IMG/VR virus record: IMGVR_UViG_3300042691_020932
Coordinates: 1 to 64,000 of that record
Length of the DNA: 64,000 nucleotides
Reading direction: 5' to 3' (one strand)
Source: a virus
Part shown: positions 968-63,692 of the stretch, in pieces
Numbering within the stretch: position 1 is the stretch's first letter
Layout of the letters: each line of letters starts with the position of its first letter
Position numbers and translations under genes: made by a program
The notes under the pieces: model-generated
Told to the model about the DNA's origin: nothing
Databases searched by the model: none
What the model saw: the letters and a program-made list of their open reading frames with translations, nothing else

Positions 968-1232
968 GACTAGAATTACTTGGAGGTATTACAATATCAT
1001 CAGGTGTAATAAGAGTGTATTGATATCCGTGCATTTCGCATGTTTTTATCATCACCTCATCTTCAATTTCAATCACATGCATTTCAGGATATCCATCCTC
1101 TTCTAGCATCATAGCATATCTTACAGCATCATCCTCTTCTTCAAAAAGATACAGAATATGCTCCCCCTCGTCATCCAACACAGAGTAAGCACCTTCAGTT
1201 TCTCTACCATTGATTGTTAGAATAAACATCAA
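954..1232 (-). CDS. Small conserved hypothetical protein between gp47 and gp46
   Basis: 92-aa acidic ORF overlapping both neighbours; FEEEDDA.RYA..LE motif typical of cyanomyoviruses at this locus. Confidence 0.85.
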   Translation of the reverse strand: MMFILTINGRETEGAYSVLDDEGEHILYLFEEEDDAVRYAMMLEEDGYPEMHVIEIEDEVMIKTCEMHGYQYTLITPDDIVIPPSNSSHDFI

Positions 1233-2269
1233 ACCAGTTCACAAGCCTCTTGATAGATTTCTTGCATCATTTTTTGAATGATTGATTTATCAAGATTAAT
1301 TTCTGCCTCCTGAATATATCTATTCAAAATAGATATAGTATCCTCACTTTCAAATGCTTCAAATTCTACTGGATCTTGAATATCGAAGTTTTCAATAATC
1401 TTGAGTTCTGCGATATTAGAGGAATAAAGTTTATCAATGAACTTTTCAAACTTTTTAGTGTCTGATTTCTTACGAACAACGACCTTTACAATTTTATTCT
1501 CATACTCGCGAGTATCAAATGTTTGATGATTGGTATCCTCATAGTAAATGTTATAGAACATTTTATAAGGATTATCAACTGGAGTATGTTCTAATGTTTC
1601 AGTATCGAAGATAGTAAATCCACGAGTGTCATTTACATCAGTCCAGTAAATTTCATATGGATTACCTAAGTAAAAGACTGTTCCGTTAGTCGATCGAGTG
1701 TGATAGTGTCCCGAGAAGACACGTTCGAACTTGTCAAATAACTTGCCTTCCAAACCATGCTCCATGACGATTTGGCGATTAACTCTAAATCCTTGGAGTT
1801 CAAGGTGCCCCATCGCACACGGGCAAGTTGTCTTTTGAATAAGTTTGAGAGTGCTTTCCTCATTTTCTTGATTAATCCAGGGTATAAAAAGTGTTCTGAG
1901 TTTATCCAGCATCACTTCAGTTGGTTCTGAATATACAGTCACATTATCGTATTCGCGCAAAAGTAAATCAACTGCATTTACATTATTAGTGTTCTTATAG
2001 TAAGCAGTGTGATTTCCTACAATTGTGTGAACCTTTACTCCCATTTCTTGGAGGCGATCGTAGTAATTATTTTTAGCCCACGATAGAGCAGAGAAATCAA
2101 TTCCCTTACGACTATCAAAAGTATCTCCCATATCTACAACAGCAGTAATCCCGTACTGTTCCAGCGTCGGGAAAAATACATCATTATAGAACTTTAGAAA
2201 ATAATCATGAAAGAGTTTAGAATTCTTTCGTGCTCCAAAGTGTTGGTCTGTAATAATTGCTACTTTCAT
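1229..2269 (-). CDS. gp47: Recombination endonuclease SbcD/Mre11-like subunit
   Basis: Metallophosphoesterase motifs TDQHFG, GDTFD, GNH, GH, SGHYH. Confidence 0.97.
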   Translation of the reverse strand: MKVAIITDQHFGARKNSKLFHDYFLKFYNDVFFPTLEQYGITAVVDMGDTFDSRKGIDFSALSWAKNNYYDRLQEMGVKVHTIVGNHTAYYKNTNNVNAVDLLLREYDNVTVYSEPTEVMLDKLRTLFIPWINQENEESTLKLIQKTTCPCAMGHLELQGFRVNRQIVMEHGLEGKLFDKFERVFSGHYHTRSTNGTVFYLGNPYEIYWTDVNDTRGFTIFDTETLEHTPVDNPYKMFYNIYYEDTNHQTFDTREYENKIVKVVVRKKSDTKKFEKFIDKLYSSNIAELKIIENFDIQDPVEFEAFESEDTISILNRYIQEAEINLDKSIIQKMMQEIYQEACELV

Positions 2270-2764
2270 TCAATAGCGAAGTTTAGAGTGAACGTTATCC
2301 TTAATACTATTGTAATCGCTATAGTTGCTTCCGTCAAGGCTATTGTCATCAAACACTTCAGAGAATCCAGAACGCTCAAGGATTTTGTTTTTGATTTCTA
2401 ACTGACGCTTCTCTCTTTGGATACGACGAAGGAATGCGTAGTGAATGATTTGAGTAAAGTATGCAAAAGGATTTTGTGACTTCTCAGGATTAAAGTTATG
2501 AATATACTGAACGCAATTCTCGATACCGTCAGAAATCATGTCCTCTTTGAACATGTAGTTGACAAAATTTGGTTTAAATGATAGATGATTGGCAATCTTC
2601 AAGAAGCACTCCCCAATGTAGCGAGGAATGGGAGGCTTTGGTTTTCCTTGAATTAATGCAATCTCTTTATCTTCACGATACTTAATCAGTGCAGCAAGAA
2701 ACTCTTTATTGTTAACATAATGCTCTGACCTCTTTCTTTTGGTCATGACTGCTGTGGTTATCAT
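2270..2764 (-). CDS. gp55: Late-transcription sigma factor
   Basis: HYVNNKEFL, IGECFLKIA, NPFAYFTQI motifs; position next to gp47. Confidence 0.97.
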   Translation of the reverse strand: MITTAVMTKRKRSEHYVNNKEFLAALIKYREDKEIALIQGKPKPPIPRYIGECFLKIANHLSFKPNFVNYMFKEDMISDGIENCVQYIHNFNPEKSQNPFAYFTQIIHYAFLRRIQREKRQLEIKNKILERSGFSEVFDDNSLDGSNYSDYNSIKDNVHSKLRY

Positions 2765-2789
2765 AAGTTTTTATCATTATTATGTAGAG

Positions 2790-2818
2790 ATTATAACACT
2801 TTCGAATATAGTTGACAA
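2790..2818 (-). promoter_or_regulatory. sigma70-type promoter for gp55
   Basis: TTGTCA-17-TATAAT with extended -10 TG. Confidence 0.8.
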
Positions 2819-2840
2819 GGTATCTAAAAGTTGGTACAAT
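2812..2840 (+). promoter_or_regulatory. Antisense sigma70-type promoter sharing its -35 region with the gp55 promoter
   Basis: TTGACA-17-TACAAT with TG; no plus-strand gene downstream. Confidence 0.65.
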
Positions 2841-2869
2841 AACCCTTGTCCGGGTTGATAAGATAAGGC

Positions 2870-3265
2870 TTAGCTATTCTTATAAAGCTTCTCTAGAATC
2901 TCTTTAGCATCATTAACATTTGATATGTAACCCATTCTACGATTAATCTTTGATTGCTTCGAAGATTCTTTATTTGCCTGACGTATATAAGATTGATACA
3001 TCATAATCATTTCAATATCAGAAGATTCGGAAAGAGTAAGCACATCTTCTAGATTGATTATAAACATATCTTCTTTGGTTGTTTTTAACCAGGGTTCTAA
3101 TTTATATCCAACAACATTTGTCCTACTCTTTATTTCACAAATAGTAATTGGATTTGAAATAATTAGAATGGTTCTATCTTCTTCCTCAGAAGCTGCAACC
3201 TTGGCAAATATCTCTTCTCCACTTTTTAATTTTATAGTGGCATAAAAGTCTTCTTCAATTCCCAT
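2870..3265 (-). CDS. Conserved hypothetical protein downstream of uvsW (possible Sm-like fold)
   Basis: 131 aa; IKLKSGEEI and PW motifs; usual cyanophage position. Confidence 0.85.
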   Translation of the reverse strand: MGIEEDFYATIKLKSGEEIFAKVAASEEEDRTILIISNPITICEIKSRTNVVGYKLEPWLKTTKEDMFIINLEDVLTLSESSDIEMIMMYQSYIRQANKESSKQSKINRRMGYISNVNDAKEILEKLYKNS

Positions 3266-4727
3266 TTTTCTTAAGTTGTACGGTGATTATTTCATAGTTA
3301 AAATTTTCTTCATTATAGATTTTAATTCTTTCGATAAGATGATTTAGAGTATAATTTTTTTTAGAATTTGAAGTGCAGTCATCTGCAATATCATAAAGTG
3401 TTGCTTTTACTTTATTTTTTCCTTTTCTAAGAACTCGTCCAATGCTTTGGAGATTTCTGATTCTTGATTTGCTTGGTGAGGCGAAGATAACATTATGGAG
3501 ATTTTTAATATTGATACCTGTAGAAAAAGTTCCATAGGAAGCAACAATAATTGCATTGTTTTCTCTTTCTGTTATTTCCCTAACCAATTCTCTTTCTTCA
3601 GTATCAACTCCACCGTGAATAAAAAATACTTTTCTATCACTTCGCTTATTGCTATTTATCTTCTCATAAAGAATAGCACCATGAGTTTCCACTCTTGAAA
3701 ATAGAACAAGACTATTTCCTTTCATATCCAAAGAAAGATTTGTAATAAACTTATTTCTTTGTTCGTGAGAAATTAGATATTGAATTTCATCCTCATAAGT
3801 TTCGAATTTTTGAGGAGAATGTTTCAATACTATGCACTGAATATCTAATTGAGAAAGATGACCTTGTTTCATCAATTCATCAGTTCTTGTCACCTTATAA
3901 GAAGGGCCAAACAATCCCTCTAGAACCCATTTGTGAGTTTGAGTTCCGTCTAGAGTTCCTGTAAATCCAAATCTATATTTTGCATGATGAAGTTTAGTCA
4001 TAATTTCAATAAGTGACTTACTCTTGAAAAGATGAGCTTCATCTCCTATAATTACTTCATACTCCTCAAAAAATGAACGTTCAAGTTTATAAACTGATTG
4101 CCATGTAGTAATTGTTACTGGATGCTCGTTTGTTTTTTCTCTACCCGAATAGATACGGTGACAATATGAATCAGCATCCCAACCATAGTCTTGGAAATCC
4201 TTGTACATCTGCTCTACAAGGGATGTCGTTGGAACAACTAGAAGAATTTTTTTCCCTTTATCTACATAATACCTTACAAGGGAATAAATCATTAAGGATT
4301 TACCTGAGGCTGTGGGTGATATCAATAATTTTCTATTATGCCTTAGAGCACCGTATACTCCCTCTATTTGATACTCTCTCGGAGAATGAGAACAAATAGA
4401 TTTCATATAATCCTTTACTCCTTCGTATGAAATACCTTCATTGACTTCAAAAGGCATTCCATAGAATTTATTCTCTTTAAACTCATACGTATACTTATGG
4501 AGAGATAGTTTATCAACAATTTTATCCAACAGACCAGTATAGATCTCTCCAGTATGAGTGCTTAACAGACGAATCTTGCCGTCCCAATGTCTGCTTCTGT
4601 ACTGGGACATAAATTTTGCAGATTCAACCTCAAAAGTAAAGTATGGTTGAAGTTCATATAAAATGTGAGGTTCGCAATTTAGTTTGATGCAAACCTCATT
4701 TTTCTTTTCGATAATTACGTCACTCAT
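3255..4727 (-). CDS. uvsW: DNA helicase UvsW
   Basis: SF2 motifs PTASGKS, DEAH, TGT, QSIGRVLR. Confidence 0.97.
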   Translation of the reverse strand: MSDVIIEKKNEVCIKLNCEPHILYELQPYFTFEVESAKFMSQYRSRHWDGKIRLLSTHTGEIYTGLLDKIVDKLSLHKYTYEFKENKFYGMPFEVNEGISYEGVKDYMKSICSHSPREYQIEGVYGALRHNRKLLISPTASGKSLMIYSLVRYYVDKGKKILLVVPTTSLVEQMYKDFQDYGWDADSYCHRIYSGREKTNEHPVTITTWQSVYKLERSFFEEYEVIIGDEAHLFKSKSLIEIMTKLHHAKYRFGFTGTLDGTQTHKWVLEGLFGPSYKVTRTDELMKQGHLSQLDIQCIVLKHSPQKFETYEDEIQYLISHEQRNKFITNLSLDMKGNSLVLFSRVETHGAILYEKINSNKRSDRKVFFIHGGVDTEERELVREITERENNAIIVASYGTFSTGINIKNLHNVIFASPSKSRIRNLQSIGRVLRKGKNKVKATLYDIADDCTSNSKKNYTLNHLIERIKIYNEENFNYEIITVQLKKNGN

Positions 4728-53740: not shown

Positions 53741-53780
53741 AGCATAACATAAGTGCCCCTCAGTGTCAACCAAGGGGCAC
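53741..53780 (-). promoter_or_regulatory. sigma70 promoter whose -35 lies in the loop of an 8-bp GC hairpin
   Basis: TTGACA-17-TATGCT; arms GTGCCCCT (53753-60) and AGGGGCAC (53773-80). Confidence 0.75.
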
Positions 53781-54232: not shown

Positions 54233-54478
54233 TTAGAAGTCGAACACGTCGCTATTCAGTTGGATCACATTCACCCTAGGGTCAGAGAACTTAACACCGT
54301 CAGGAGTAGAGTATCCAACACCGATCTCTTTTACGAAGGTTTGGTAATCACCACACTCACGAGCGAGGTTATACAAACCCTCATCATTGTTGATCCAGAG
54401 AGCAACATTCCAGGTCTCATAATTCTCCCAACCGTTATAGGAAATGTCGAGAGCATTGCGTTGGAAAGTGTTAGTCAT
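54233..54478 (-). CDS. Conserved early phage hypothetical protein
   Basis: YNGWENYETWNVALWINND motif. Confidence 0.85.
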   Translation of the reverse strand: MTNTFQRNALDISYNGWENYETWNVALWINNDEGLYNLARECGDYQTFVKEIGVGYSTPDGVKFSDPRVNVIQLNSDVFDF

Positions 54479-54522
54479 TTGGTAAGTCTTGAGTGTTAGC
54501 GGGGCGGTGAACTTGTGCCCCT

Positions 54523-54551
54523 CATACTATTAGGACACTTTACGGGGCCCA
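54523..54551 (-). repeat. 29-bp cassette/promoter element, copy 1
   Basis: TGGGCCCCGTAAAGTGTCCTAATAGTATG. Confidence 0.95.
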
Positions 54552-54554
54552 GTA

Positions 54555-54734
54555 TTAGTCACTCACCCTACTTTGAATATCACTGAGAATCTCAGCTATC
54601 ACCTCTACGCTATCCCTATCGTTCTGCTCTAGTTGTTGCATAACGTCTTGCAGTTGTGGTAGGATACTGATGACTAGTTGCGGCACCCTGATAATACTCA
54701 TTTCACCCAAATTCTTATACTTTAGTGGTCTCAT
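54555..54734 (-). CDS. Small putative DNA-binding (ribbon-helix-helix-like) protein (not in ORF track)
   Basis: MRPLKYKNLGEMSIIRVPQLVISILPQLQDVMQQLEQNDRDSVEVIAEILSDIQSRVSD; basic N-terminus, IRVP strand, then helices. Confidence 0.6.
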   Translation of the reverse strand: MRPLKYKNLGEMSIIRVPQLVISILPQLQDVMQQLEQNDRDSVEVIAEILSDIQSRVSD

Positions 54735-54786
54735 AGTTTTGTTAACATAACTGGGGGTATTTAGGGGGGGTTATGTTAACAAAACT
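54735..54786 (-). promoter_or_regulatory. Perfect 17-bp inverted repeat with a late promoter (CTAAATA) in the loop
   Basis: Arms AGTTTTGTTAACATAAC (54735-51) and GTTATGTTAACAAAACT (54770-86); tatttag at 54758-64. Confidence 0.85.
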
Positions 54787-54798
54787 CACATCACTAAA

Positions 54799-54972
54799 TC
54801 ACCACTTATCAGGACGGCTGAGGTCTTCCACGTATGCCGAAACCTTCTCAGCTGGTTCCAATTTGAATACCTTCTCCCACTCTAATTGATGAGGGTCGAA
54901 GTCCTCAAAGACTTCAAGTTCCAGAGTGACCCTATAACGCTGCTTCTGGGCTTGACGATATGCAACCGACAT
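54799..54972 (-). CDS. Hypothetical protein (not in ORF track)
   Basis: MSVAYRQAQKQRYRVTLELEVFEDFDPHQLEWEKVFKLEPAEKVSAYVEDLSRPDKW; has its own promoter and a GGAG ribosome-binding site. Confidence 0.8.
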   Translation of the reverse strand: MSVAYRQAQKQRYRVTLELEVFEDFDPHQLEWEKVFKLEPAEKVSAYVEDLSRPDKW

Positions 54973-55001
54973 AAGTGTGCTCCGTGAGTGTTACTGAGGA
55001 C

Positions 55002-55030
55002 AGTATAAGATGCTGAGGGCATTGTGTCAA
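55002..55030 (-). promoter_or_regulatory. sigma70-type promoter
   Basis: TTGACA-17-TATACT. Confidence 0.85.
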
Positions 55031-55101
55031 GGTCTGGGGGTATTTATGAGGGGGTTTATATGTGGCGGAGGATGTGTGGGGATTTGATGACGCGGGGGTG
55101 C

Positions 55102-55130
55102 TTGACATTTCTGGGAGTTTGTGATAGCTT
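55102..55130 (+). promoter_or_regulatory. Plus-strand sigma70-type promoter pointing into non-coding DNA
   Basis: TTGACA-17-TAGCTT with extended TG. Confidence 0.6.
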
Positions 55131-55320
55131 GCGCGCAAAGATAACAAGACTCTGAGGCATTTAAAGGGCATTAAAAGGGTCTCTAATTGATACGAATTCT
55201 TATCATTATCACCTCTTAATAACAATAATTATCGCACAAATAAATCACTCAGCTATAATTAAAAAAGGCTTTTTCAAACGTTTTAATACATTTTTGACAC
55301 TAAATCACGTTTTTAGGCAT

Positions 55321-55347
55321 AAAAAAAGACCTCACGAATGAGGTCTC
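55321..55347 (-). terminator. Intrinsic terminator ending the early small-gene array
   Basis: AGACCTCA-TTCG-TGAGGTCT followed by a U-tract. Confidence 0.9.
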
Positions 55348-55356
55348 TATGTATAT

Positions 55357-55593
55357 TCAATCAAGTGCTAATCGGTAACGAGCATAATCCTCTGCATCGC
55401 TACGTTTGCGGAATCGTGCTTCTTCTCCTTCAAATCGTAGAGGCAAATACCTATACTTCTTACCTTCCTTAGTCATAACAATTCGGGAGAATAGGTGCAG
55501 TGAGTAACTACCATCCTCACTTCTTTCCTTCTCTTTCTTGACAATGAAAGGGAGAACTTGTTGATCGTTGAATGACTGTTTAGAGAGTAACAT
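55357..55593 (-). CDS. Hypothetical protein
   Basis: 78-aa ORF directly upstream of the terminator. Confidence 0.7.
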   Translation of the reverse strand: MLLSKQSFNDQQVLPFIVKKEKERSEDGSYSLHLFSRIVMTKEGKKYRYLPLRFEGEEARFRKRSDAEDYARYRLALD

Positions 55594-55607
55594 GACGGAA
55601 TTGATTA

Positions 55608-55793
55608 TCAGAAACGAATGATAAGTTGATCTAGACCAAAGACATCAGAATCATATGGAGCAGACACTAACTCTACACCTGACTGATAATACATTGGCAA
55701 ATCATCAAATCCAGAATCACAAATGACGACATCTTGATTGAGTTGATCTTCGGTGAGAGATTGCAGTTGTGAGAGAAGTTCTTTGTAAGTCAT
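55608..55793 (-). CDS. Hypothetical protein
   Basis: MTYKELLSQLQSLTEDQLNQDV, a common phage N-terminus. Confidence 0.75.
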   Translation of the reverse strand: MTYKELLSQLQSLTEDQLNQDVVICDSGFDDLPMYYQSGVELVSAPYDSDVFGLDQLIIRF

Positions 55794-55972
55794 TTGGTAT
55801 AATCAATAATGAGTTGTTCGAGTGTATGAAGCGTCTTTACATTCCAGTTCTTAATATCACCATGAGGAGCATACAGTTTGCTATACCATCGACCATAAAG
55901 TTCAGGATTTAGATGTTGAACTTTCTCTAGAGTGTCAGCAATGAGAAAGTCAATTTGTTCTTGGTAATTCAC
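55790..55972 (-). CDS. Hypothetical protein
   Basis: 60 aa; 4-bp overlaps with neighbours. Confidence 0.65.
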   Translation of the reverse strand: MNYQEQIDFLIADTLEKVQHLNPELYGRWYSKLYAPHGDIKNWNVKTLHTLEQLIIDYTK

Positions 55973-56100
55973 TGTACTAATTCAGCAGGACTTCCACAGG
56001 AGAGATAGAATTGAACCATCCTTTGTGCTTCATCAAGTGTAGGAAAGCTTTGCGTTCTCCATTGTTGTTGATAAGGCGTAAAGTATCGGATTGTGAACAT
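55969..56100 (-). CDS. Hypothetical protein (not in ORF track)
   Basis: MFTIRYFTPYQQQWRTQSFPTLDEAQRMVQFYLSCGSPAELVQ. Confidence 0.7.
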   Translation of the reverse strand: MFTIRYFTPYQQQWRTQSFPTLDEAQRMVQFYLSCGSPAELVQ

Positions 56101-56101
56101 T

Positions 56102-56278
56102 TTAGTTTTGATTGTTGGAATAAAGAATGTCTAGCATTTGTTGGTAGTAGTTATCTGCTTCTACCTCACATTGATGAGACTGAGTTGCATCTTCAATCTC
56201 ATATTGTTTCATATTAAGAGAGTGAATCACGTTGTCTAGAAGATTAGTCAGTGCTTCAATCTTTTGTTCGTTAGTCAT
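56102..56278 (-). CDS. Hypothetical protein
   Basis: MTNEQKIEAL...; start coupled to the upstream stop (TAATG). Confidence 0.65.
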   Translation of the reverse strand: MTNEQKIEALTNLLDNVIHSLNMKQYEIEDATQSHQCEVEADNYYQQMLDILYSNNQN

Positions 56279-56433
56279 TACAAACACCAATCAGCTCCTT
56301 CGGGATCGAATAACGTCCAGTTGCTAATATCTTGTGGGATGATATTATCTCGGGCAAAATCTCTTGCTTCTTGTTCAGTCTCAAACTCGTGAAAGTCGAG
56401 AATGTCATCATCGTTTTGGAGAAGATAAGACAT
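56278..56433 (-). CDS. Hypothetical protein (not in ORF track)
   Basis: MSYLLQNDDDILDFHEFETEQEARDFARDNIIPQDISNWTLFDPEGADWCL. Confidence 0.65.
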   Translation of the reverse strand: MSYLLQNDDDILDFHEFETEQEARDFARDNIIPQDISNWTLFDPEGADWCL

Positions 56434-56750
56434 CACTTAAGCACCATACCTTCAGTGAAAGGAATTGTGTTGTCATTATCTACAACAAACCATTCAAAGT
56501 CACGTTGAAAGATACGGGCATCATTTCCGTGAACTTTCAGAATAGCATTGAGACGTGATTTGGTGGTAGGAGTCTTATACCCACAGGTGTAAAGTTCAAG
56601 GAAGGTATCACCAATCGTTGCAATATGATTGCCATGAAGCATAACATATGAAGCATCACGTTCGGGCGAATAAGTTACCTCCGTGTTGTCATTTTTCCAG
56701 TCAGTGCAATCACAGATTGCTTTGTTCATTTGGGATTCGATCTTTCTCAT
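56433..56750 (-). CDS. Conserved phage hypothetical protein
   Basis: MRKIESQMNKAI...LHGNHIA...TTKSRLNAIL...FQRDFEWF. Confidence 0.85.
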   Translation of the reverse strand: MRKIESQMNKAICDCTDWKNDNTEVTYSPERDASYVMLHGNHIATIGDTFLELYTCGYKTPTTKSRLNAILKVHGNDARIFQRDFEWFVVDNDNTIPFTEGMVLK

Positions 56751-56768
56751 GGTAGGAAGTGTTGTGGT

Positions 56769-56797
56769 TATACTACTAGGACACTTTGGGTGGCCCA
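56769..56797 (-). repeat. 29-bp element, copy 2 (flank A)
   Basis: AACAAATAG-TGGGCCACCCAAAGTGTCCTAGTAGTATA. Confidence 0.97.
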
Positions 56798-56808
56798 CTA
56801 TTTGTTAC

Positions 56809-57063
56809 TCAGAACTTTTCGATCCATTGTTGAATCTTTTGCAGTGCAGTTTGTTGATCGTTACACTTACACTTGCGGAACTTGGTAGTGTTTAATCCCT
56901 TGGAAATTAGTTCCAGTTTGCCATCAGCAAGACAGAAGATTCCATAGCGTGAGTTATGAAAAATGTTGTTAATCCATGACTCTTGACTATCAGCACTGAC
57001 CTTAATAAAAGTGGAATTGCGCCCACTTAAAGTGCTATTGTCGATGTGAAGATAAGGGAACAT
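56809..57063 (-). CDS. Hypothetical protein
   Basis: 84 aa; WINNIFHNSRY..F and KFRK motifs. Confidence 0.75.
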   Translation of the reverse strand: MFPYLHIDNSTLSGRNSTFIKVSADSQESWINNIFHNSRYGIFCLADGKLELISKGLNTTKFRKCKCNDQQTALQKIQQWIEKF

Positions 57064-57067
57064 AATT

Positions 57068-57274
57068 TCAGAGAGAGAATACTTTATATGTCACAAGTTG
57101 GGAATCTCGATCATACTTTTCATAGGACCAAGTACCTTCGGTTTGTTCAACATAAGAGTGAACATTGTCATTGGAATCTTCTTTCCAAAAGGCACCAGTT
57201 TCAGGTTGGAAGAAATAACCAGAAGCGATAAGTGCGTCAGTGAATGTCATTGTGATTTCAGTGTTAAGTAACAA
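57068..57274 (-). CDS. Hypothetical protein, paralog of 59202-59426
   Basis: MTFTDALIASGY...H.Y.E...W.Y.K. Confidence 0.75.
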   Translation of the reverse strand: MLLNTEITMTFTDALIASGYFFQPETGAFWKEDSNDNVHSYVEQTEGTWSYEKYDRDSQLVTYKVFSL

Positions 57275-57277
57275 TAA

Positions 57278-57484
57278 TCAGGCAGCGATTGCAGACTCTA
57301 GACATACCTCACGGGTTTCCATGATAGCATAATCAAAACCCTCAACTTCTTCTAGGTGCTTTTGATAAGCAACAGCAGCAGAGAAACAATCAAACAAGCG
57401 GAGAGATTTGAAGTTTTCACCTTCATAATCATAACCACCGATTACAGCGTAGACTTTCATTTCGGACATTTGGGAAGCGTTCAT
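57278..57484 (-). CDS. Hypothetical protein
   Basis: MKVYAVIGGYDYEGE; in frame with the ATG of element copy 3. Confidence 0.8.
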   Translation of the reverse strand: MNASQMSEMKVYAVIGGYDYEGENFKSLRLFDCFSAAVAYQKHLEEVEGFDYAIMETREVCLESAIAA

Positions 57485-57510
57485 ACTACTAGGACACTTT
57501 GGGTGGCCCA
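57482..57510 (-). repeat. 29-bp element, copy 3 (flank B)
   Basis: TGATAAACAC-TGGGCCACCCAAAGTGTCCTAGTAGTATG. Confidence 0.97.
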
Positions 57511-57529
57511 GTGTTTATCATCATCAATA

Positions 57530-57685
57530 TCAAGACTTTTTATAATCTCGATTCATTGCAGCAACTTGATAGGATGAACGTGCCACAATTTCATTCCTAG
57601 AAGTGTGTTGAGATTGTGCGCGATGATTATATCCTACCCACACAAAACCTTGTGTTTTAAGGTCACATGCAACATTGTAAATCAT
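57530..57685 (-). CDS. Hypothetical protein
   Basis: MIYNVACDLKT...; fills the gap between neighbours. Confidence 0.55.
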   Translation of the reverse strand: MIYNVACDLKTQGFVWVGYNHRAQSQHTSRNEIVARSSYQVAAMNRDYKKS

Positions 57686-57689
57686 GAGA

Positions 57690-57923
57690 TCAAGAATAGT
57701 AAAGATTTGCAATTTCATTGCGAAGACGATTCAGAGTCTCCCAGTTTGAAATATATCCAACCTCGGAAGAGATGCTATCATCGAAGGTCGCATATCCAAG
57801 GACATCGACAATATCGTTCACATACAATCCTTGGTGAGCATTGAGTTCTTCATCATCAAACTGGTTGAAGTAACGAACCAGAAAGTTGAGTGCTTCAGTG
57901 TAAAGTTCTTGAGTCATTTGCAT
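57690..57923 (-). CDS. Hypothetical protein
   Basis: 77-aa acidic ORF. Confidence 0.65.
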   Translation of the reverse strand: MQMTQELYTEALNFLVRYFNQFDDEELNAHQGLYVNDIVDVLGYATFDDSISSEVGYISNWETLNRLRNEIANLYYS

Positions 57924-57941
57924 TTGATAGTATTTGGCAAT

Positions 57942-58109
57942 TCAGCGAAGTGTCAGAGAGCGAGTATCAATCCAAACACCTTTATCAGTACCCATTCGGA
58001 AACTATGATCCCACACAAAGTGTGTCGCTTCCTGATTGGTAAGAATAAACTGTTTGCAGAGAATCTCTACTGCTTCAAAGATATTTGAGAATCGGAGAGT
58101 TGTAGACAT
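57942..58109 (-). CDS. Hypothetical protein
   Basis: MSTTLRFSNIFEAV...; first gene after copy 4. Confidence 0.65.
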   Translation of the reverse strand: MSTTLRFSNIFEAVEILCKQFILTNQEATHFVWDHSFRMGTDKGVWIDTRSLTLR

Positions 58110-58130
58110 TTTGGGAAGTCTGTAAGGGGT

Positions 58131-58159
58131 TATACTACTAGGACACTTTGGGTGGCCCA
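58131..58159 (-). repeat. 29-bp element, copy 4 (flank C)
   Basis: AGTTTCAAATGATTAG-TGGGCCACCCAAAGTGTCCTAGTAGTATA. Confidence 0.97.
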
Positions 58160-58306
58160 CTAATCATTTGAAACTAAAATCGTCGGACCTTCAACTTGAC
58201 AAAACTCCAACAGATAGTAATCAATAGTGATTCCAAGTTGTGATGCTTCAGTATAAAACTGTTGATATTGTTGACCGTCAAGAATAAAGAAATCAGTTTC
58301 AATCAT
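58160..58306 (-). CDS. Hypothetical protein
   Basis: MIETDFFILD...ASQLGITIDYYLLEF. Confidence 0.7.
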   Translation of the reverse strand: MIETDFFILDGQQYQQFYTEASQLGITIDYYLLEFCQVEGPTILVSND

Positions 58307-58451
58307 GGGGTGCGATAATGTCAGCGACAGTGTGTAATGTGGTTGAAGTTGTGTTACGAACTGCAGGAGAAAGTATAAACGCAACAGCAAAGATCAGGAG
58401 AATTGTCTTCACTTTGTCGGGTGACTTGAATGTTAGACTTTTGCGTGACAT
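58299..58451 (-). CDS. Small membrane-anchored protein (not in ORF track)
   Basis: MSRKSLTFKSPDKVKTILLIFAVAFILSPAVRNTTSTTLHTVADIIAPHD. Confidence 0.6.
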   Translation of the reverse strand: MSRKSLTFKSPDKVKTILLIFAVAFILSPAVRNTTSTTLHTVADIIAPHD

Positions 58452-58456
58452 TCAAA

Positions 58457-58672
58457 CTAAGATCCACCGTACACATATTCGATTACACCTGCCTCATCAA
58501 GTCCTACAGATTCGATGACAGTGAATCGTGCATAGTTATCAAACTCATCTGCATAGTAATCTCCAACCTCTTTGATAAACAACTCGCGGCATTGTTCTTT
58601 GTTCTCAGCAGCAATAACTACCATTCCAGAGGTATAATCAGAGAGGACATTGTTAATGATAAACAGTTTCAT
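58457..58672 (-). CDS. Hypothetical protein
   Basis: LSDYTSGMVVIAA...YVYGGS. Confidence 0.75.
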   Translation of the reverse strand: MKLFIINNVLSDYTSGMVVIAAENKEQCRELFIKEVGDYYADEFDNYARFTVIESVGLDEAGVIEYVYGGS

Positions 58673-58687
58673 GGTTTTAGTTAAGTT

Positions 58688-58918
58688 TCAGTCGAAGCGA
58701 GAGGATACATCAGGACCAGGATTCTCAAGGTGTGCAACACTATCAGCAACACCTTCAGCAGTTAGTGCAAATTGTACTTTTTTGCCTTCGTGATAGATGT
58801 CAAAGACAGATTGGACGTAAGGTGTTAGGTTGCCTTGCGAATCCCAGGCATTTCGTGTATGCGAAGTCTCAACGATTTCGTAGACTTTAGAGGTGAGAGG
58901 TGAAGTGTAGGTCATCAT
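58688..58918 (-). CDS. Hypothetical protein starting at the ATG of copy 5
   Basis: MMTYTSPLTSKVYEIV...; no internal Met alternative. Confidence 0.7.
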   Translation of the reverse strand: MMTYTSPLTSKVYEIVETSHTRNAWDSQGNLTPYVQSVFDIYHEGKKVQFALTAEGVADSVAHLENPGPDVSSRFD

Positions 58919-58944
58919 ACTACTAGGACACTTTGGGGGGCCCA
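58916..58944 (-). repeat. 29-bp element, copy 5 (flank A)
   Basis: AACAAATAG-TGGGCCCCCCAAAGTGTCCTAGTAGTATG. Confidence 0.97.
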
Positions 58945-59205
58945 CTATTTGTTTCGGGTGGATTCAGTTGTTACACTCTCCACCAATTCTTGCAGTTCAT
59001 CGTCATCATAATAGTGCGACAGTTCTTCCATCAATTCACTCTCTTTATAGTCAATCATACTATCACAAATTGTGTCAATCGCAAATGCACACAAATCGCG
59101 CACATCCATATTGTCAACAACTCGCTCAGCATAGAGTTGAACGATCTTGGAAAGTTGGTCTTGAGAAAGTGTCATTTTGTTTGTAGGATTAGGAAGGGAA
59201 ATCAT
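58945..59205 (-). CDS. Hypothetical protein
   Basis: Y.ERVVDNMD..DL motif, acidic. Confidence 0.75.
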   Translation of the reverse strand: MISLPNPTNKMTLSQDQLSKIVQLYAERVVDNMDVRDLCAFAIDTICDSMIDYKESELMEELSHYYDDDELQELVESVTTESTRNK

Positions 59206-59426
59206 TGAATAACAGTGCTAGTATCAGGATTGAAAGTAACTTCGGAGATCACATCAAAATCATCACTCATCTTGACATAATTCCAGAGAGTGTCAGTCTC
59301 ATCATCCACATTTTCCTGATAAAGGTGAATGAAACCGTCATCACCTTGTTTTACATAACAACCATCATAATTCTCATCATCAAATACATAACCAGATGCA
59401 ATCAGTGCTTCAGTAAATGTCATCAT
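59202..59426 (-). CDS. Hypothetical protein, paralog of 57068-57274
   Basis: MTFTEALIASGY...H.YQE...W.Y.K. Confidence 0.75.
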   Translation of the reverse strand: MMTFTEALIASGYVFDDENYDGCYVKQGDDGFIHLYQENVDDETDTLWNYVKMSDDFDVISEVTFNPDTSTVIQ

Positions 59427-59557
59427 TTGCAGTAGTTAGGGTTAATTTGGCAGAACTGATCTGCTTGGCGTTCTTGATACTCACTGGTCGTTGCGTGTGC
59501 TATCAAACCAAAGCGAAGACCGAGTGCTAGAGTAGCAATCAAAAAAGCAATTCGCAT
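59423..59557 (-). CDS. Small secreted or membrane protein (not in ORF track)
   Basis: MRIAFLIATLALGLRFGLIAHATTSEYQERQADQFCQINPNYCK. Confidence 0.65.
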   Translation of the reverse strand: MRIAFLIATLALGLRFGLIAHATTSEYQERQADQFCQINPNYCK

Positions 59558-59703
59558 CAGACTTCATCCCTCATTTCGGTGAGTTTGTCATACAGAGCAG
59601 GAATATCTGTCTCTGTAAGTTCAGTCAAATAGCACCAATCGCTAGACTCAAGAACTGCAAGAAGAGTATCAATCTCTTCAAAAGTGAGAGTGGTTTGTGT
59701 CAT
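59557..59703 (-). CDS. Hypothetical protein (not in ORF track)
   Basis: MTQTTLTFEEIDTLLAVLESSDWCYLTELTETDIPALYDKLTEMRDEV. Confidence 0.65.
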   Translation of the reverse strand: MTQTTLTFEEIDTLLAVLESSDWCYLTELTETDIPALYDKLTEMRDEV

Positions 59704-59705
59704 AT

Positions 59706-59891
59706 TCAATCAACGACAGAGTAACAAGCAACCCAGGAAGGAATCCCAGAGAGTGATAACGAACCATTGCGGGCATCGCAATAGTCTTGTGCGTCATCTT
59801 CAGTGTAGAAAGGTCCAATATACTCGGGAGAATTGAGTGCATTGGAATCGAAGCGAACTGTGAATGTTTCAGTCATTGTGGTTTGTCTCAT
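59706..59891 (-). CDS. Hypothetical protein
   Basis: YIGPFYTEDDAQDYCD; in frame with the ATG of copy 6. Confidence 0.75.
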   Translation of the reverse strand: MRQTTMTETFTVRFDSNALNSPEYIGPFYTEDDAQDYCDARNGSLSLSGIPSWVACYSVVD

Positions 59892-59917
59892 ACTACTAGG
59901 ACACTTTGCAGGGCCCA
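59889..59917 (-). repeat. 29-bp element, copy 6 (flank B)
   Basis: TGATAAACAC-TGGGCCCTGCAAAGTGTCCTAGTAGTATG. Confidence 0.97.
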
Positions 59918-59924
59918 GTGTTTA

Positions 59925-60251
59925 TCAGTTACGCATCAGGGAAAGATAACCATCCTCGGAGAGAGTATCCTCAGACAGGTTGACATTGCGAGCACAAGAG
60001 ATTGCATCAGCAAAGTTATCGAAAGTACCAAAGTTTTTCTGATTACCACACCAGCAACCTTTGTACTCATAAATCATTGCTTCCACAGTAAATACATCGT
60101 TTTTGAAGTTACGATCTACACTGTGCTTGATATAAACTTTCCCGTCATTTCGGGTGTACTTATCGAAGATGGAAGACTTGAAAGTAAGAGTGAAATCAGT
60201 GATGAAATCACCAGTGAGATTGATGCTTTTTTGGAAGAGAGTTTCAGTCAT
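59925..60251 (-). CDS. Hypothetical protein (single-gene cassette)
   Basis: 108-aa ORF filling the interval between copies 7 and 6. Confidence 0.75.
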   Translation of the reverse strand: MTETLFQKSINLTGDFITDFTLTFKSSIFDKYTRNDGKVYIKHSVDRNFKNDVFTVEAMIYEYKGCWCGNQKNFGTFDNFADAISCARNVNLSEDTLSEDGYLSLMRN

Positions 60252-60275
60252 TTAGTGGTTTTTCGTTTGAGTCCT

Positions 60276-60304
60276 TATACTACTAGGACACTTTAGGTGG
60301 CCCA
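60276..60304 (-). repeat. 29-bp element, copy 7 (flank C)
   Basis: AGTTTCAAATGATTAG-TGGGCCACCTAAAGTGTCCTAGTAGTATA. Confidence 0.97.
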
Positions 60305-60308
60305 CTAA

Positions 60309-60452
60309 TCATTTGAAACTCACATTCACTCCAACAATTCTAGCAGTAGGATTGCGTACTTTTGCTGTCTCGCGTGCATCTTTTGGAGAGTTAGCATATA
60401 CTTCCTCCTTAAAGACTTTGCCACCAACGTAGAGATCAACGATGTACTTCAT
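60309..60452 (-). CDS. Conserved cyanophage-type small protein (not in ORF track)
   Basis: MKYIVDLYVGGKVFKEEVYANSPKDARETAKVRNPTARIVGVNVSFK. Confidence 0.8.
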   Translation of the reverse strand: MKYIVDLYVGGKVFKEEVYANSPKDARETAKVRNPTARIVGVNVSFK

Positions 60453-60589
60453 GTGCTTGTTTGTATTTTAGAAAAAATTGATGATTTCACTGCAGTGGAT
60501 GACCTTTGACCCGTGTGCAGTGAAATTGCAGAAAAATCAGGTTTTTGGTTGAGTGGTGGACTGGGTTCTCGGTGAGACTCAAGTGAGAA

Positions 60590-60784
60590 TCACAGGGTCT
60601 GCCAGTCTTGTGCCTCTTTCAAGTTAGAGTTAAAGAACTTTTGCAAGATAGACTCAATTACAGGTTGCCACTGTTTGTCTTTAATTGAGTCACGATTCTG
60701 TGCTTCGACAAGAAACTTAAGGATGCAAGTCTCTTCGTTTGGAGTGAAGTCAACGCGAGTGAAAGTGTAACCGTCAGTCATCAT
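60590..60784 (-). CDS. Hypothetical protein
   Basis: 64 aa; coupled to the upstream ORF. Confidence 0.7.
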   Translation of the reverse strand: MMTDGYTFTRVDFTPNEETCILKFLVEAQNRDSIKDKQWQPVIESILQKFFNSNLKEAQDWQTL

Positions 60785-61014
60785 TTAATCCAGCAACTTT
60801 TGTTTGATTTGTTTTGTGCTCTTGCAAAAGAACCAGCATCGTGGCATAATTTAGAGAGTTTAATTAGAACCTCACGATCTTTCACTGGACGCTCAAATGC
60901 AAGATCATTGTTCATACTTAGAGAGACCAAATCTCTCAACAATCTTTCACATCGAAGTGCCTCATTGATTGTAAAGTTTTCGTTGATAATTGGGCGAAAG
61001 TTCTTCATAATCAA
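60781..61014 (-). CDS. Hypothetical protein
   Basis: 77 aa; 4-bp overlaps. Confidence 0.6.
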   Translation of the reverse strand: MIMKNFRPIINENFTINEALRCERLLRDLVSLSMNNDLAFERPVKDREVLIKLSKLCHDAGSFARAQNKSNKSCWIK

Positions 61015-61178
61015 ACAGGAAAAACTTCTACAGAACGAATAAGATTTGTGCGATCTTGTGCTAGGTAATCATCAGCGATTTTACCACACGATGAACGAGA
61101 TTGAATAATCTTTTCCTCATAAAGATTCTCATCTTCATCAGGAACCCAATACTCAATCAGCATACGATAGGTTTTCAT
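61011..61178 (-). CDS. Hypothetical protein (not in ORF track)
   Basis: MKTYRMLIEYWVPDEDENLYEEKIIQSRSSCGKIADDYLAQDRTNLIRSVEVFPV. Confidence 0.65.
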   Translation of the reverse strand: MKTYRMLIEYWVPDEDENLYEEKIIQSRSSCGKIADDYLAQDRTNLIRSVEVFPV

Positions 61179-61426
61179 CAGTAGTGTGCCTCAGAGTAGT
61201 CAAGAACTTCGCTGTACTTAGCGATACCATCATAGCAACGCTTTGCCATTTCAGAATCACCTTCAGCGATGTAACCTTTCAGAAACTCAAAGCAGTATTT
61301 GATACGCTGCTCTGGAGTAACTTTAGCGAGTTGTTGTTGCTTACGCTCATAGGCAGCGTTGTAGGCAAACATCTCACGATCTTCGAGGGAGATGTTGTGA
61401 AACTTGCGGTCGGTAGTGTTATTCAT
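61178..61426 (-). CDS. Hypothetical protein starting at the ATG of copy 8
   Basis: MNNTTDRKFHNISLEDREMFAYN... Confidence 0.7.
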   Translation of the reverse strand: MNNTTDRKFHNISLEDREMFAYNAAYERKQQQLAKVTPEQRIKYCFEFLKGYIAEGDSEMAKRCYDGIAKYSEVLDYSEAHY

Positions 61427-61452
61427 ACTACTAGGACACTTTGCAGGGCCCA
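61424..61452 (-). repeat. 29-bp element, copy 8 (flank A)
   Basis: AACAAATAG-TGGGCCCTGCAAAGTGTCCTAGTAGTATG. Confidence 0.97.
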
Positions 61453-61459
61453 CTATTTG

Positions 61460-61714
61460 TTACCAGCGGCCTTGTTGTATGAGAATCTTTTTGATTTCAG
61501 TATAAATGAACTGACGAAGTTTAGTGTCGGCAGTGTTATCAAAAGCATAATAAAGACGATTCAAATACTCATTCTGTGTCAGTCCAATGTTACCATCACC
61601 ACCGATTTCATTGAGTGATGAACCTGCCTGCACACGATTCTTTCCAAAGTTGCCAGACACACGCCCAGTTGTTCTCAGTTTGGGCTTTATCTTTGAGAGA
61701 TTAGAGTATGTCAT
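61460..61714 (-). CDS. Conserved basic hypothetical protein
   Basis: SNLSKIKPKLRT.G.VSGNFG...YLNRLY. Confidence 0.8.
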   Translation of the reverse strand: MTYSNLSKIKPKLRTTGRVSGNFGKNRVQAGSSLNEIGGDGNIGLTQNEYLNRLYYAFDNTADTKLRQFIYTEIKKILIQQGRW

Positions 61715-61896
61715 TTGAATTGTTCTAGAACATCAATAAAGTGTTGGATACAATCTTTGGGGATGTGGATGGTTTGGTATCCAGGACCATTACCATCTTC
61801 CACACTCACAGTGCCATACTCATCAGCAGTAAAATCAAAACTCCAACCATCTTCTTCGTGTTCGATTTTGATGTGTTTGGTGATAGTGTAAGTCAT
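61711..61896 (-). CDS. Hypothetical protein
   Basis: 61 aa; IHIPKDCIQHFID. Confidence 0.7.
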   Translation of the reverse strand: MTYTITKHIKIEHEEDGWSFDFTADEYGTVSVEDGNGPGYQTIHIPKDCIQHFIDVLEQFK

Positions 61897-62066
61897 TCAT
61901 CCTCCTCATAAGGAAACATTTCGTCGTATTCTTCGTCAGTTAGAGTGAGATACTGAACATCAGCATTTTTGTGCTCTTCAGCATACACTAATTGATAGTG
62001 TGCGAAAGAAGATGGGTCACTGCTAGCATACTCTACCAGACCATCAACAATACAAAGGTAGTTCAT
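61893..62066 (-). CDS. Hypothetical protein (not in ORF track)
   Basis: MNYLCIVDGLVEYASSDPSSFAHYQLVYAEEHKNADVQYLTLTDEEYDEMFPYEEDE. Confidence 0.65.
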   Translation of the reverse strand: MNYLCIVDGLVEYASSDPSSFAHYQLVYAEEHKNADVQYLTLTDEEYDEMFPYEEDE

Positions 62067-62293
62067 CGTGCCAAAGATAAGTTGTATTTGATAATCAAAA
62101 GGTCTCGCACTTGTTCTCGGTCGATACTATCACCACAGAACGGCACTTCTTTAATCTTTGCAATCCTGATAATGTCGTTGGTTGCTTTACGAACTAGAGT
62201 ACGATTTGCACCCATCGGATATAATCCATCAGGACCATAGAACGACATCACATAATCAATGAAATCGTTAATAAACTCTTTAGACATAATCAC
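62063..62293 (-). CDS. Conserved phage hypothetical protein
   Basis: FIDYVMSFYGPDGLYPM...FCGDSIDREQVRD. Confidence 0.8.
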   Translation of the reverse strand: MIMSKEFINDFIDYVMSFYGPDGLYPMGANRTLVRKATNDIIRIAKIKEVPFCGDSIDREQVRDLLIIKYNLSLAR

Positions 62294-62724
62294 TTAGCGT
62301 AGAGATAACCACCAGACCAATCGGCATTCTCCAGCAGATATTCACGATCTTTGATCAATCGCAGATCATAACGAACACCTTTGGCAGGAGATTTCCAAGT
62401 CGCAGACTTATATACTTCGCCAGTGTTCTTGTCAATGAAGCAATGAACGGAGCGGGAACCGCCACCACTCACAAAGATGACTTTGTGATACTTTTTACCA
62501 GTCTCAACAGTATAATCAATGTCACACTTGCCAGACTTGAGTTCATCAACCTTGCGAATGTGATACTCTACATTCTCACCACGCTCAGCAGAAGTCTGAT
62601 GACCGCGAATAGAATACTGACGATAGTTGTCTTTCAGTGCTTCAATCAGCAGGAGAGTGTGCTTATACACATTCTCTGCGATGGTTTGTTTTGCTTGTGC
62701 TTGCATTTCAGTGGTTGTACTCAT
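62290..62724 (-). CDS. Conserved phage hypothetical protein
   Basis: GKKYHKV...SVHCFIDKNTGEVYKSATWKSPAKGVRY...ADWSGGYLY. Confidence 0.85.
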   Translation of the reverse strand: MSTTTEMQAQAKQTIAENVYKHTLLLIEALKDNYRQYSIRGHQTSAERGENVEYHIRKVDELKSGKCDIDYTVETGKKYHKVIFVSGGGSRSVHCFIDKNTGEVYKSATWKSPAKGVRYDLRLIKDREYLLENADWSGGYLYAK

Positions 62725-62750
62725 ACTACTAGGACACTTTGCAGGGCCCA
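62722..62750 (-). repeat. 29-bp element, copy 9
   Basis: TGGGCCCTGCAAAGTGTCCTAGTAGTATG. Confidence 0.97.
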
Positions 62751-62751
62751 A

Positions 62752-63666
62752 TTACCAACTCTTTGCCATTGTGAAGTTTGCGTGAGAGAATGTCTCGCGA
62801 TCCACTACTTTGAAGATGCCGTAATCGTTTTTGATTACATAACCCTCGTGGAAACTTGCCACATCCCACAGGAAACATTCGATGTCGTCTTCTTCGTGAA
62901 TGAAGAGGAACAAATCATCCTTGATTGTCTTCACCAACTTCCAAAGCCGGATGAGGTTCTTGTCACAATCACATTTTTCTGCAATTTCATCCTCACAGAT
63001 GATACGTTGCTCCCTGATGCAAGCATTGATCTCTTTTTTGATTTGTGATGCCTTGCGATCACTCACAAACTCACACAGAGTTGACATTTGCTTGGCAAAC
63101 TTACACACATCTGCCAAATCCTCACGATAAGGATTCAGGGACACTGCAGGTTGCACGAATAAGCATTTCTTAGTGCTTGCAAACTTGCTGGTGATAGGGT
63201 GTGCTACCATTTCAGGCAGACGCTCACCAGTGTAGTAAGTATGGGGAGCAACGATAATCTCTTGACGAACAACCTCAGGAAACTTATAGGTAATGGTGTT
63301 GGGTTTGAATGTATCAAGACCCTTACCGAAACCAATCCAATCTCCCTGATACACATTGTTAGTGCGAGGCAGGAAATCCAAGCAATAGATGAGGATTTGC
63401 GTTACGCGAGGTTGACCGCCAAAATGGGTAAAGATGTCGTCCTCGTTATAGCACAGGCGAATCTTTTGCTTATTAAATGCTGCTTTGGTGCAGACAAAAA
63501 ACTTACCATTCTCAGGATTAGTGCCCCAAACAATAGCAGGAGCGCCATCCATCTTGACACTGATAGTAGAATCAGCACTGAACCAATCGAGCACCGAAAG
63601 ATCACCATTTAGGATAGAATCTTCGGGATGTTCGATATGTTTGTTTTGCATTGGTTGCTTACTCAT
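62752..63666 (-). CDS. DUF6267-like protein with ligase-type nucleotidyltransferase motifs
   Basis: HIEHPED, KMDGAP (motif I KxDG), YQGD, HEGYV (motif IV), FKVVDR (motif V). Confidence 0.7.
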   Translation of the reverse strand: MSKQPMQNKHIEHPEDSILNGDLSVLDWFSADSTISVKMDGAPAIVWGTNPENGKFFVCTKAAFNKQKIRLCYNEDDIFTHFGGQPRVTQILIYCLDFLPRTNNVYQGDWIGFGKGLDTFKPNTITYKFPEVVRQEIIVAPHTYYTGERLPEMVAHPITSKFASTKKCLFVQPAVSLNPYREDLADVCKFAKQMSTLCEFVSDRKASQIKKEINACIREQRIICEDEIAEKCDCDKNLIRLWKLVKTIKDDLFLFIHEEDDIECFLWDVASFHEGYVIKNDYGIFKVVDRETFSHANFTMAKSW

Positions 63667-63692
63667 ACTACTAGGACACTTTGCAGGGCCCA
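63664..63692 (-). repeat. 29-bp element, copy 10
   Basis: TGGGCCCTGCAAAGTGTCCTAGTAGTATG. Confidence 0.97.

Follow-up and report, generated by a model that had tools for sequence, protein, structure and literature searches.

In phage T4, the MotA-dependent middle promoters carry a MotA box near −30 which replaces the −35 box and is paired with a TAnnnT −10 box. An early-gene regulatory element of marine T4-like cyanophages has also reportedly been described, by Doron et al. in 2016. Published work gives cyanophages as lacking motA and asiA (PMC5780444, citing Doron et al. 2016), and the MotA- and AsiA-free switching-on of the first genes in T4-like cyanophages is only partly understood. A further type of repeated signal, the promoter-early stem-loop (PeSL), is known from the T4-type phages RB49/phi1, T4/PST and KVP40/nt-1 (PMC2839356; PMC4122927). 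Here, a 29-bp element is described which is repeated ten times in a stretch of viral DNA of 64,000 nucleotides (hereafter the window), representing bases 1–64000 of the 82,590-bp IMG/VR contig IMGVR_UViG_3300042691_020932 (estimated to be 38% complete). This element is probably a lineage-specific, promoter-type start signal of the early class, belonging to a clade of freshwater T4-like cyanomyoviruses.

The contig is that of an uncultured freshwater T4-like cyanomyovirus, given that T4-type virion genes fill positions 1–52 kb (major head, scaffold, portal, sheath, terminase and baseplate wedge subunit), that its nucleotide matches to cultured phages are solely short ones to Synechococcus myoviruses, and that near-identical DNA occurs in the freshwater and lake metagenomes of 16 studies. 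The clade is abundant in lake metagenomes of many studies, and its putative early-gene signal is compressed, unlike that of the cultured marine phages.

Distribution of the element and its linkage to genes

The initial annotation had reported ten copies of the element, with none in the first 54 kb. Both statements were borne out by a scan with the pattern TGGGCCnnnnAAAGTGTCCTARTAGTATR, which matched exactly ten times without a mismatch, always on the minus strand, with start positions at 54523, 56769, 57482, 58131, 58916, 59889, 60276, 61424, 62722 and 63664. No match was found in any of 100 shuffled sequences. One stray GTGTCCTA lies at 43847 on the plus strand, without any other part of the motif. 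Past the window, another five good copies (64226, 68047, 68534, 69591 and 73153) and a degenerate one (65951) occur in the contig, again on the minus strand. All 16 copies fall between genes, point in the direction of the genes and are restricted to 54.5–73.2 kb, in the non-structural region; their strand bias follows from gene orientation, as 129 of the 135 called open reading frames (ORFs) are on the minus strand. The region from 54 to 73 kb comprises approximately 60 small ORFs and, like the setting of PeSLs, is a hyperplastic small-gene region of a T4-type genome.

The location of the copies relative to genes is also as first described (0–20 nt after a stop codon and at the head of a block of tiny ORFs), with the stop codon of the upstream ORF ending 0–19 nt before every copy and units of 387–2246 bp following within the window, each with one to six small ORFs. 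A usable ATG is found inside the copy or 13–45 nt behind it, so that the copy fills nearly the whole intergenic gap.

Genes were called in the contig and in 60 related loci and their proteins were clustered into families. Families headed by the element in the contig were found to carry it across 53 related contigs in 17 of 17, 11 of 11, 6 of 6, 17 of 21, 13 of 15 and 17 of 22 cases, while families without it in the contig never carried it there (0/27, 0/17 and 0/16 among others). This family comparison linked the element to the downstream gene and not to the upstream one. The 20 nt which follow the element likewise track the gene, with 8.6 mismatches between orthologues versus 12.7 between paralogues, the latter figure being equal to background. 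Three of the element-headed genes, encoding a helicase, a Kyano_Gp96-family protein and a DUF7717 protein, are orthologues of gp75, of the gene at 53112 and of gp69 of marine phage Syn9, respectively, and these Syn9 genes are preceded by the Syn9-type element discussed below, either directly or at the head of their unit.

The proposal that the element is an expression signal heading units of small genes is thus supported by its position, its orientation, its strict linkage to gene families and the orthology of its genes with element-bearing genes of Syn9. Each copy, placed after the stop codon that ends one unit and before the leading gene of the following one, would start expression at that point, with each unit so started consisting of one to several tightly packed, small genes of mostly unknown function. 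Its promoter role, its early class and the form of polymerase that would read it are inferred. The start point would be situated either approximately 7 nt after TAGTAT, as expected of a sigma70-type promoter, or at or before the element's own ATG, as in a leaderless transcript.

Comparison with known promoter types

The core of the element, GGGCCnnnnAAAGTGTCCTA, was found in 60 stretches of IMG/VR contigs, mostly several times per strand. The consensus of 115 unique copies from these contigs reads A-(C/G)-TGGGCCC-T-n-T-AAAGTGTCC-TA-G-TAGTAT-(G/A)-A-G-C-A. Within TAGTAT, the bases T10, A11 and T15, which make up the TAnnnT pattern, are conserved in 86–93% of the 115 copies, and CA steps lie 5 and 8 nt downstream. 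Among 50,697 phage records, a blastn search with a 40-nt element query gave no match. Scans of Syn9, S-PM2, S-CRM01 and S-SZBM1 for the pattern found matches at background level only, and a 19-base element pattern had no match in 185,579 prokaryote species genomes, in which an 18-mer of the element matched seven times, never in a cyanobacterium.

The closest resemblance was to the early-gene element of the marine T4-like cyanophages. This was re-derived from the sequences of Syn9 (NC_008296) and S-PM2 (NC_006820) as the pattern GTG(A/C)CA-N9-GTGTC followed, after 28–31 nt, by TAnnnT, with leaders of 25–60 nt; it is taken to be the element of Doron et al. 2016. The pattern matched nine times in Syn9, 11 times in S-PM2, not at all in controls and not at all in the present contig. 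Its sites include positions 43114, 47205, 49079 and 52997 of Syn9 and 5078, 8575, 9855 and 11349 of S-PM2. It should also be noted that GTGNCA-N9-GTGTC is an imperfect palindrome which is found in both orientations with respect to the gene and invariably 28–31 nt from the TAnnnT hexamer.

The marine and freshwater elements belong to the same virus group, occur in many co-oriented copies before small non-structural genes, have an AAGTGTC(C/A) box and a left box of G(T/G)G(C/A)C(A/C) in common, and are both accompanied by separate canonical sigma70 promoters. They differ in that the freshwater boxes are 3 nt closer together, in that the right box is 1 nt from TAGTAT, whereas it lies about 29 bp upstream of the hexamer in the marine form, and in that half of the freshwater copies contain a start codon. 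The freshwater element is probably the functional counterpart of the marine one. It is set apart by its compressed geometry and embedded start codon. With the T4 MotA promoters it shares the lack of a −35 consensus and a good TAnnnT hexamer with, upstream of it, a conserved box that is particular to the phage. The sequence and spacing of that box are unlike those of the T4 promoters, however, and the class of the element is probably early and not middle.

Several other candidate identities were rejected. No match to a sigma54-like or SigF-like signal was found; the likeness to the T4 late box TATAAATA extends to only five of eight positions with the wrong geometry; and the A/T-rich stretch upstream of the element, which could suggest an UP element, consists of the stop codons of the upstream genes. 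Host mimicry in the form of an exactly copied host promoter was discounted on the exact-match results, no search for looser host matches having been made. The signal CGRE1 is a 21–22-nt palindrome with GTTG flanks which starts at −55 to −57 (PMC6191309). Identity of the element with this PlmA/CGRE1 signal is unsupported, since the GTTG flanks are missing and the literature provides no link between CGRE1 and cyanophages.

The embedded start codon and the position of the transcript start

A number of observations weigh against a promoter of the ordinary −35/−10 type. Although TGGGCC lies at a −35-like place with a spacer of 16–17 bp, the −35 position reads nTGGGC and matches TTGACA at only three of six bases, and a sigma70 consensus scan skipped the element yet flagged four canonical promoters nearby, which indicates that it is not a canonical sigma70 promoter. 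The gap from TAGTAT to the ATG is 13–23 nt, compared to 24–37 nt at the canonical promoters of the same region. The only RNA run consists of Logan contigs, which show no transcript starts, strand or level. Furthermore, 97 of the 189 unique copies terminate in ATG. In 91 of the 97, this ATG shares its frame with an ORF of 35 amino acids or more, and in 44 no second in-frame ATG is present within 12 codons. As the element ATGs are in frame and are often the sole nearby start, the end of the element is both transcribed and translated. Its transcription is hard to reconcile with a −10 role of TAGTAT and a start 7 nt further on, unless read-through serves the genes concerned. In the DUF6267 units of the related loci L014 and L019, a strong intrinsic terminator ends only 11–13 nt before the element. 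About half of all copies supply the start codon of their gene.

These observations can be accommodated by a compact promoter of a non-sigma70 kind, in which TGGGCC and AAAGTGTCC are read by a factor other than through the usual −35/−10 contacts and transcription starts at, or just before, the element's own ATG. The messenger RNA would be leaderless or, where the ATG is absent, would have a leader of 15–24 nt. This alternative is regarded as possible, if rather doubtful. It would account for the in-frame ATGs and for the DUF6267 genes of L014 and L019, which start at the element ATG, close behind their terminators. In copies without the ATG, the real start is mostly about 15–24 nt past that position (a median of 19 nt from TAGTAT) and shows no preferred frame (36/89, p = 0.18), which also fits this alternative, as does the presence of T followed by a purine at the ATG position in more than 90% of copies. 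The leaders counted from that base are near those estimated for the canonical promoters of the same region (approximately 17–30 nt). Against it, no cyanobacterial or T4-type polymerase form is known for such a site, and the conservation of TAnnnT together with the downstream CA steps suits an ordinary −10 box and start point. Moreover, most junctions are without terminators, which makes read-through from upstream likely, and such read-through could account for the in-frame ATGs.

An extended form of this idea treats the element as a self-contained "promoter plus start codon" module with a leaderless start and TGGGCC and AAAGTGTCC boxes, of which the copies would be kept uniform by gene conversion; this is put forward tentatively and is thought somewhat unlikely. 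If true, AAAGTGTCC would be the half-site of the marine early element moved about 28 bp into the core promoter, and a host factor or one delivered by the virion would be implied. In any event, the embedded start codon leads to a clear prediction on transcript starts. A start codon or in-frame ATG overlaps the TAGTAT hexamer in 91 of the 189 copies. The conserved N-terminus of the DUF6267 protein (MQNKHIEHP in the contig) is at the second ATG in the contig, and at the element's own ATG in several relatives.

The location of the element between a stop and a start codon, the latter often within it, could also suggest a signal acting on RNA, namely a ribosome-loading, translation-control or processing site for each coupled block of genes on long polycistronic transcripts, with no promoter activity. 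Genes within units are indeed coupled through ATGA overlaps, and contigs of the RNA run cross copies of the element. This explanation is considered very unlikely. The start codon is either 0 or 15–24 nt away, a spacing unlike that of a fixed operator or ribosome site, and neither a Shine-Dalgarno-like sequence nor structure is present. Copies directly behind terminators would need a promoter, and the Syn9 orthologues have promoter elements at the DNA level.

The claim that no clear terminators exist at the junctions holds in the window, where none of the ten copies has a convincing terminator stem-loop and the terminator scan flagged only two weak hairpins before copies. It does not extend to all relatives, a few of which have strong intrinsic terminators 0–13 nt upstream of copies (approximately 8 of 189 family copies).

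Gene order and exchange between copies

The array had originally been interpreted as integron-like, with each copy consisting of two inverted arms around a spacer and with cassettes captured and reordered by a tyrosine recombinase of phage or host. The outward picture is similar to that of integron attC/IntI systems, with co-oriented repeats between small genes at cassette-like spacing, an imperfect dyad visible in the letters and element-headed units that are at times gained or lost whole. The proposal found no support and is now held to be extremely improbable, there being no recombinase, no hairpin, no covariation of the arms and no excess of breakpoints at the element. The earlier observation that no recombinase gene is visible was confirmed and extends beyond the window, as the tyrosine and serine recombinase domains, PF00589 and PF00239 respectively, are both absent from the whole 82.6-kb contig. 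PF00589 was also absent from five relatives of 62–89 kb, with contig and relatives all being 30–42% complete.

The dyad is present as letters (four Watson-Crick pairs and one G-T pair of seven in the family consensus), and it receives no backing from covariation or folding. The element folds into no single-strand hairpin (z-scores of DNA folding from −0.6 to +1.7), and across 190 copies the arms vary independently, with one compensatory change versus 235 one-sided ones. Pairing is almost absent at two of the seven arm pairs proposed, and an intact left arm is found in 176 copies compared to an intact right arm in only 95. In one lineage, represented by locus L056 (IMGVR_UViG_3300042516_002999), the left arm has been replaced: TGGGCCnnnn gives way to GCTCACCTCC in six of seven copies, with the right half kept. 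The copies of L056 lie at positions 619–4122 of that contig, and the six altered ones read ATTAAAATA-GCTCACCTCC in place of TGGGCCnnnn. This new left half contains CACCTCC, which is identical, and not complementary, to the 3′ end of 16S rRNA. The element is also situated 5′ of its gene in the manner of a promoter, while integron cassettes have attC at the 3′ end and lack promoters, and the array is without IntI and without an attC-type folded site.

Alignment of relatives did not place gene-order breakpoints at the element. Gene adjacency had a conservation rate of 0.24 for junctions with the element (n = 15), compared to 0.29 for the remainder (n = 43; p = 0.49), and because element-free junctions break as often, breakpoints are largely unrelated to the element. 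Among 60 non-redundant indels relative to relatives, 45 brought no net change in element number, and 25 had an element at an edge, with a chance estimate of about 44% (roughly 26). Together, these counts point to gene turnover which proceeds gene by gene and is not tied to the element. It should be noted that none of the relatives compared for junction and indel endpoints was above 95% identity.

Some exchange between copies nevertheless takes place. Copies within a contig are as alike as orthologous copies elsewhere (3.98 versus 4.20 mismatches of 28, the background being 5.43), the same nnnn spacer recurs more often inside one contig (0.31 versus 0.22 and 0.11), and the new left half of L056 has been homogenised across six of its seven copies. 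Taken together, this likeness, the shared spacers and the L056 case show that the copies evolve in concert within a genome, exchanging sequence with one another.

A stronger proposal is that the element has a dual role as in RB49/phi1, the copies being promoters and at the same time the main patches of homology through which promoter-plus-gene modules are swapped. Where element junctions are broken, an element still comes after the upstream gene in 35 of 55 cases and before the downstream gene in 40 of 53, compared to only 14 of 89 and 4 of 81 at broken element-free junctions (Fisher p = 6e-9; baseline 0.37), although selection for expression alone would also keep an element at a swapped junction. 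In 14 of the 60 indels, complete units with their heading element are added, among them the nuclease/methylase-like pair at 64257–65935. Segments of 93% identity in otherwise diverged relatives comprise an element and one gene and end 5–14 nt upstream of the element, and a metagenomic variant joins 60253 to 62705, with two units missing and the joint beside two copies. The concerted evolution of the copies and the terminator hairpin before some relatives' copies also agree with this proposal. On the other hand, the equal breakage of element-free junctions, the 45 indels without net element change, the equally mosaic nature of single genes without an element and the lack of a stem-loop at most copies speak against it, and it is judged not very likely.

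As with PeSLs, short repeated regulatory cassettes are found here whose element-headed modules are swapped and whose copies evolve in concert. A PeSL, however, combines a near-consensus sigma70 promoter (of the TTGACA-N17-TATAAT type) with a terminator stem-loop, whereas the element lacks a −35 consensus and is without a stem-loop in this contig, and gene turnover is not concentrated at its copies. For the promoter-type start signal favoured here, PeSL-type homologous exchange between copies is plausible as a side effect: copies trading sequence within a genome could provide short homology patches for module swaps without forming a dedicated site-specific system. Cassette-like repeat arrays in the small-gene regions of phages therefore need not represent recombination systems, and the repeats described here would mainly mark the starts of expression units.

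The ends of Logan contigs at copies of the element were rejected as evidence of recombination, being expected from de Bruijn assembly of a 29–30-nt repeat. One joint in these contigs which goes back from 61411 to 59251 is not at a copy.

Individual copies and their genes

All copies of the window lie on the minus strand. Copy 1 (TGGGCCCCGTAAAGTGTCCTAATAGTATG; 54523..54551) heads a DUF7249 gene at 54233–54478. Its ATG opens merely a mini-ORF of nine codons (ATGAGGGGCACAAGTTCACCGCCCCGCTAA), and a leader with GGGGC and GCCCC, able to pair, follows (window positions 54480–54551); the DUF7249 genes of L010, L041 and L039 are preceded by a conserved version of this leader. Copy 2 (56769..56797), which ends in TATA and has no ATG, heads the Kyano_Gp96-family gene at 56433–56750 with its ATG 19 nt after TAGTAT, and an element is found upstream of the orthologues in 17 of 17 relatives. 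The gene behind copy 3 (57482..57510) is at 57278–57484, with PHROG alignment favouring the second ATG, 13 nt after TAGTAT. Copy 4 (58131..58159) again ends in TATA and heads the gene at 57942–58109, and the own ATG of copy 5 (58916..58944) is in frame with the gene at 58688–58918. Behind copy 6 (59889..59917) lies the gene at 59706–59891, and behind copy 7 (60276..60304), the third to end in TATA, that at 59925–60251. The ATG of copy 8 (61424..61452) is the only plausible start of the gene at 61178–61426 (82 amino acids), and the whole module at 61177–61462 is 93% identical in L030. Copy 9 (62722..62750) heads the DUF7717 gene at 62290–62724, the orthologue of Syn9 gp69, and copy 10 (63664..63692) heads the DUF6267 gene at 62752–63666.

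Past the window, the most degenerate copy heads a unit at contig positions 64257–65979 (L071:1667–3389), in which a nuclease-like ORF, with weak RmuC and NOV_C matches, is coupled by an ATGA overlap to an ORF resembling a DNA methyltransferase. This pair was found in only three related loci and, when compared to L013, L014 and L031, counted as an insertion.

Other signals of the contig

Motifs of the late type (ATAAATA) are concentrated in the structural module, with 23 in 1–52 kb compared to two in 54.5–73.2 kb, and the consensus scan placed the four near-canonical sigma70 promoters near the element region at 55030, 53769, 53471 and 53199. Since the element, these promoters and the ATAAATA motifs are kept apart, the genome appears to have three separate signal classes, an arrangement like that reported for the marine T4-like cyanophages.

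From 73200 to 82590, the contig holds 33 tightly packed small genes without a copy of the element, and no other repeated element was found in this part (73–82.6 kb). Several of these genes are orthologues of p002–p043, located at the start of the S-PM2 genome record. One of the genes, at 73663–74190 (L071:11073–11600), encodes a protein of 175 amino acids with a C-terminal DNA-binding domain of AbrB/MazE type (PF04014, E = 9e-6) and lies about 480 bp upstream of the first copy of the element in the order of transcription. On the basis of this domain, it is a candidate for a DNA-binding regulator of the phage.

Two stretches on the minus strand of the window contain canonical promoters in unusual surroundings. 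At 54990–55348, an intrinsic terminator (55348–55325) is followed by approximately 300 nt with no convincing ORF and an A/T-rich first half. At its end lies a near-perfect sigma70 promoter, TTGACA-17-TATACT (55030–55002), which heads an ORF for 57 amino acids at 54799–54972, and the stretch is conserved at 72–80% in several relatives. At 53741–53780, a 12-bp hairpin (GTGCCCCTTGG...) includes a −35 box (TTGACA) within the loop and descending arm that form its 3′ half, and TG-TATGCT comes after this box. By its sequence, this composite of hairpin and putative promoter fits the definition of a PeSL better than the 29-bp element does.

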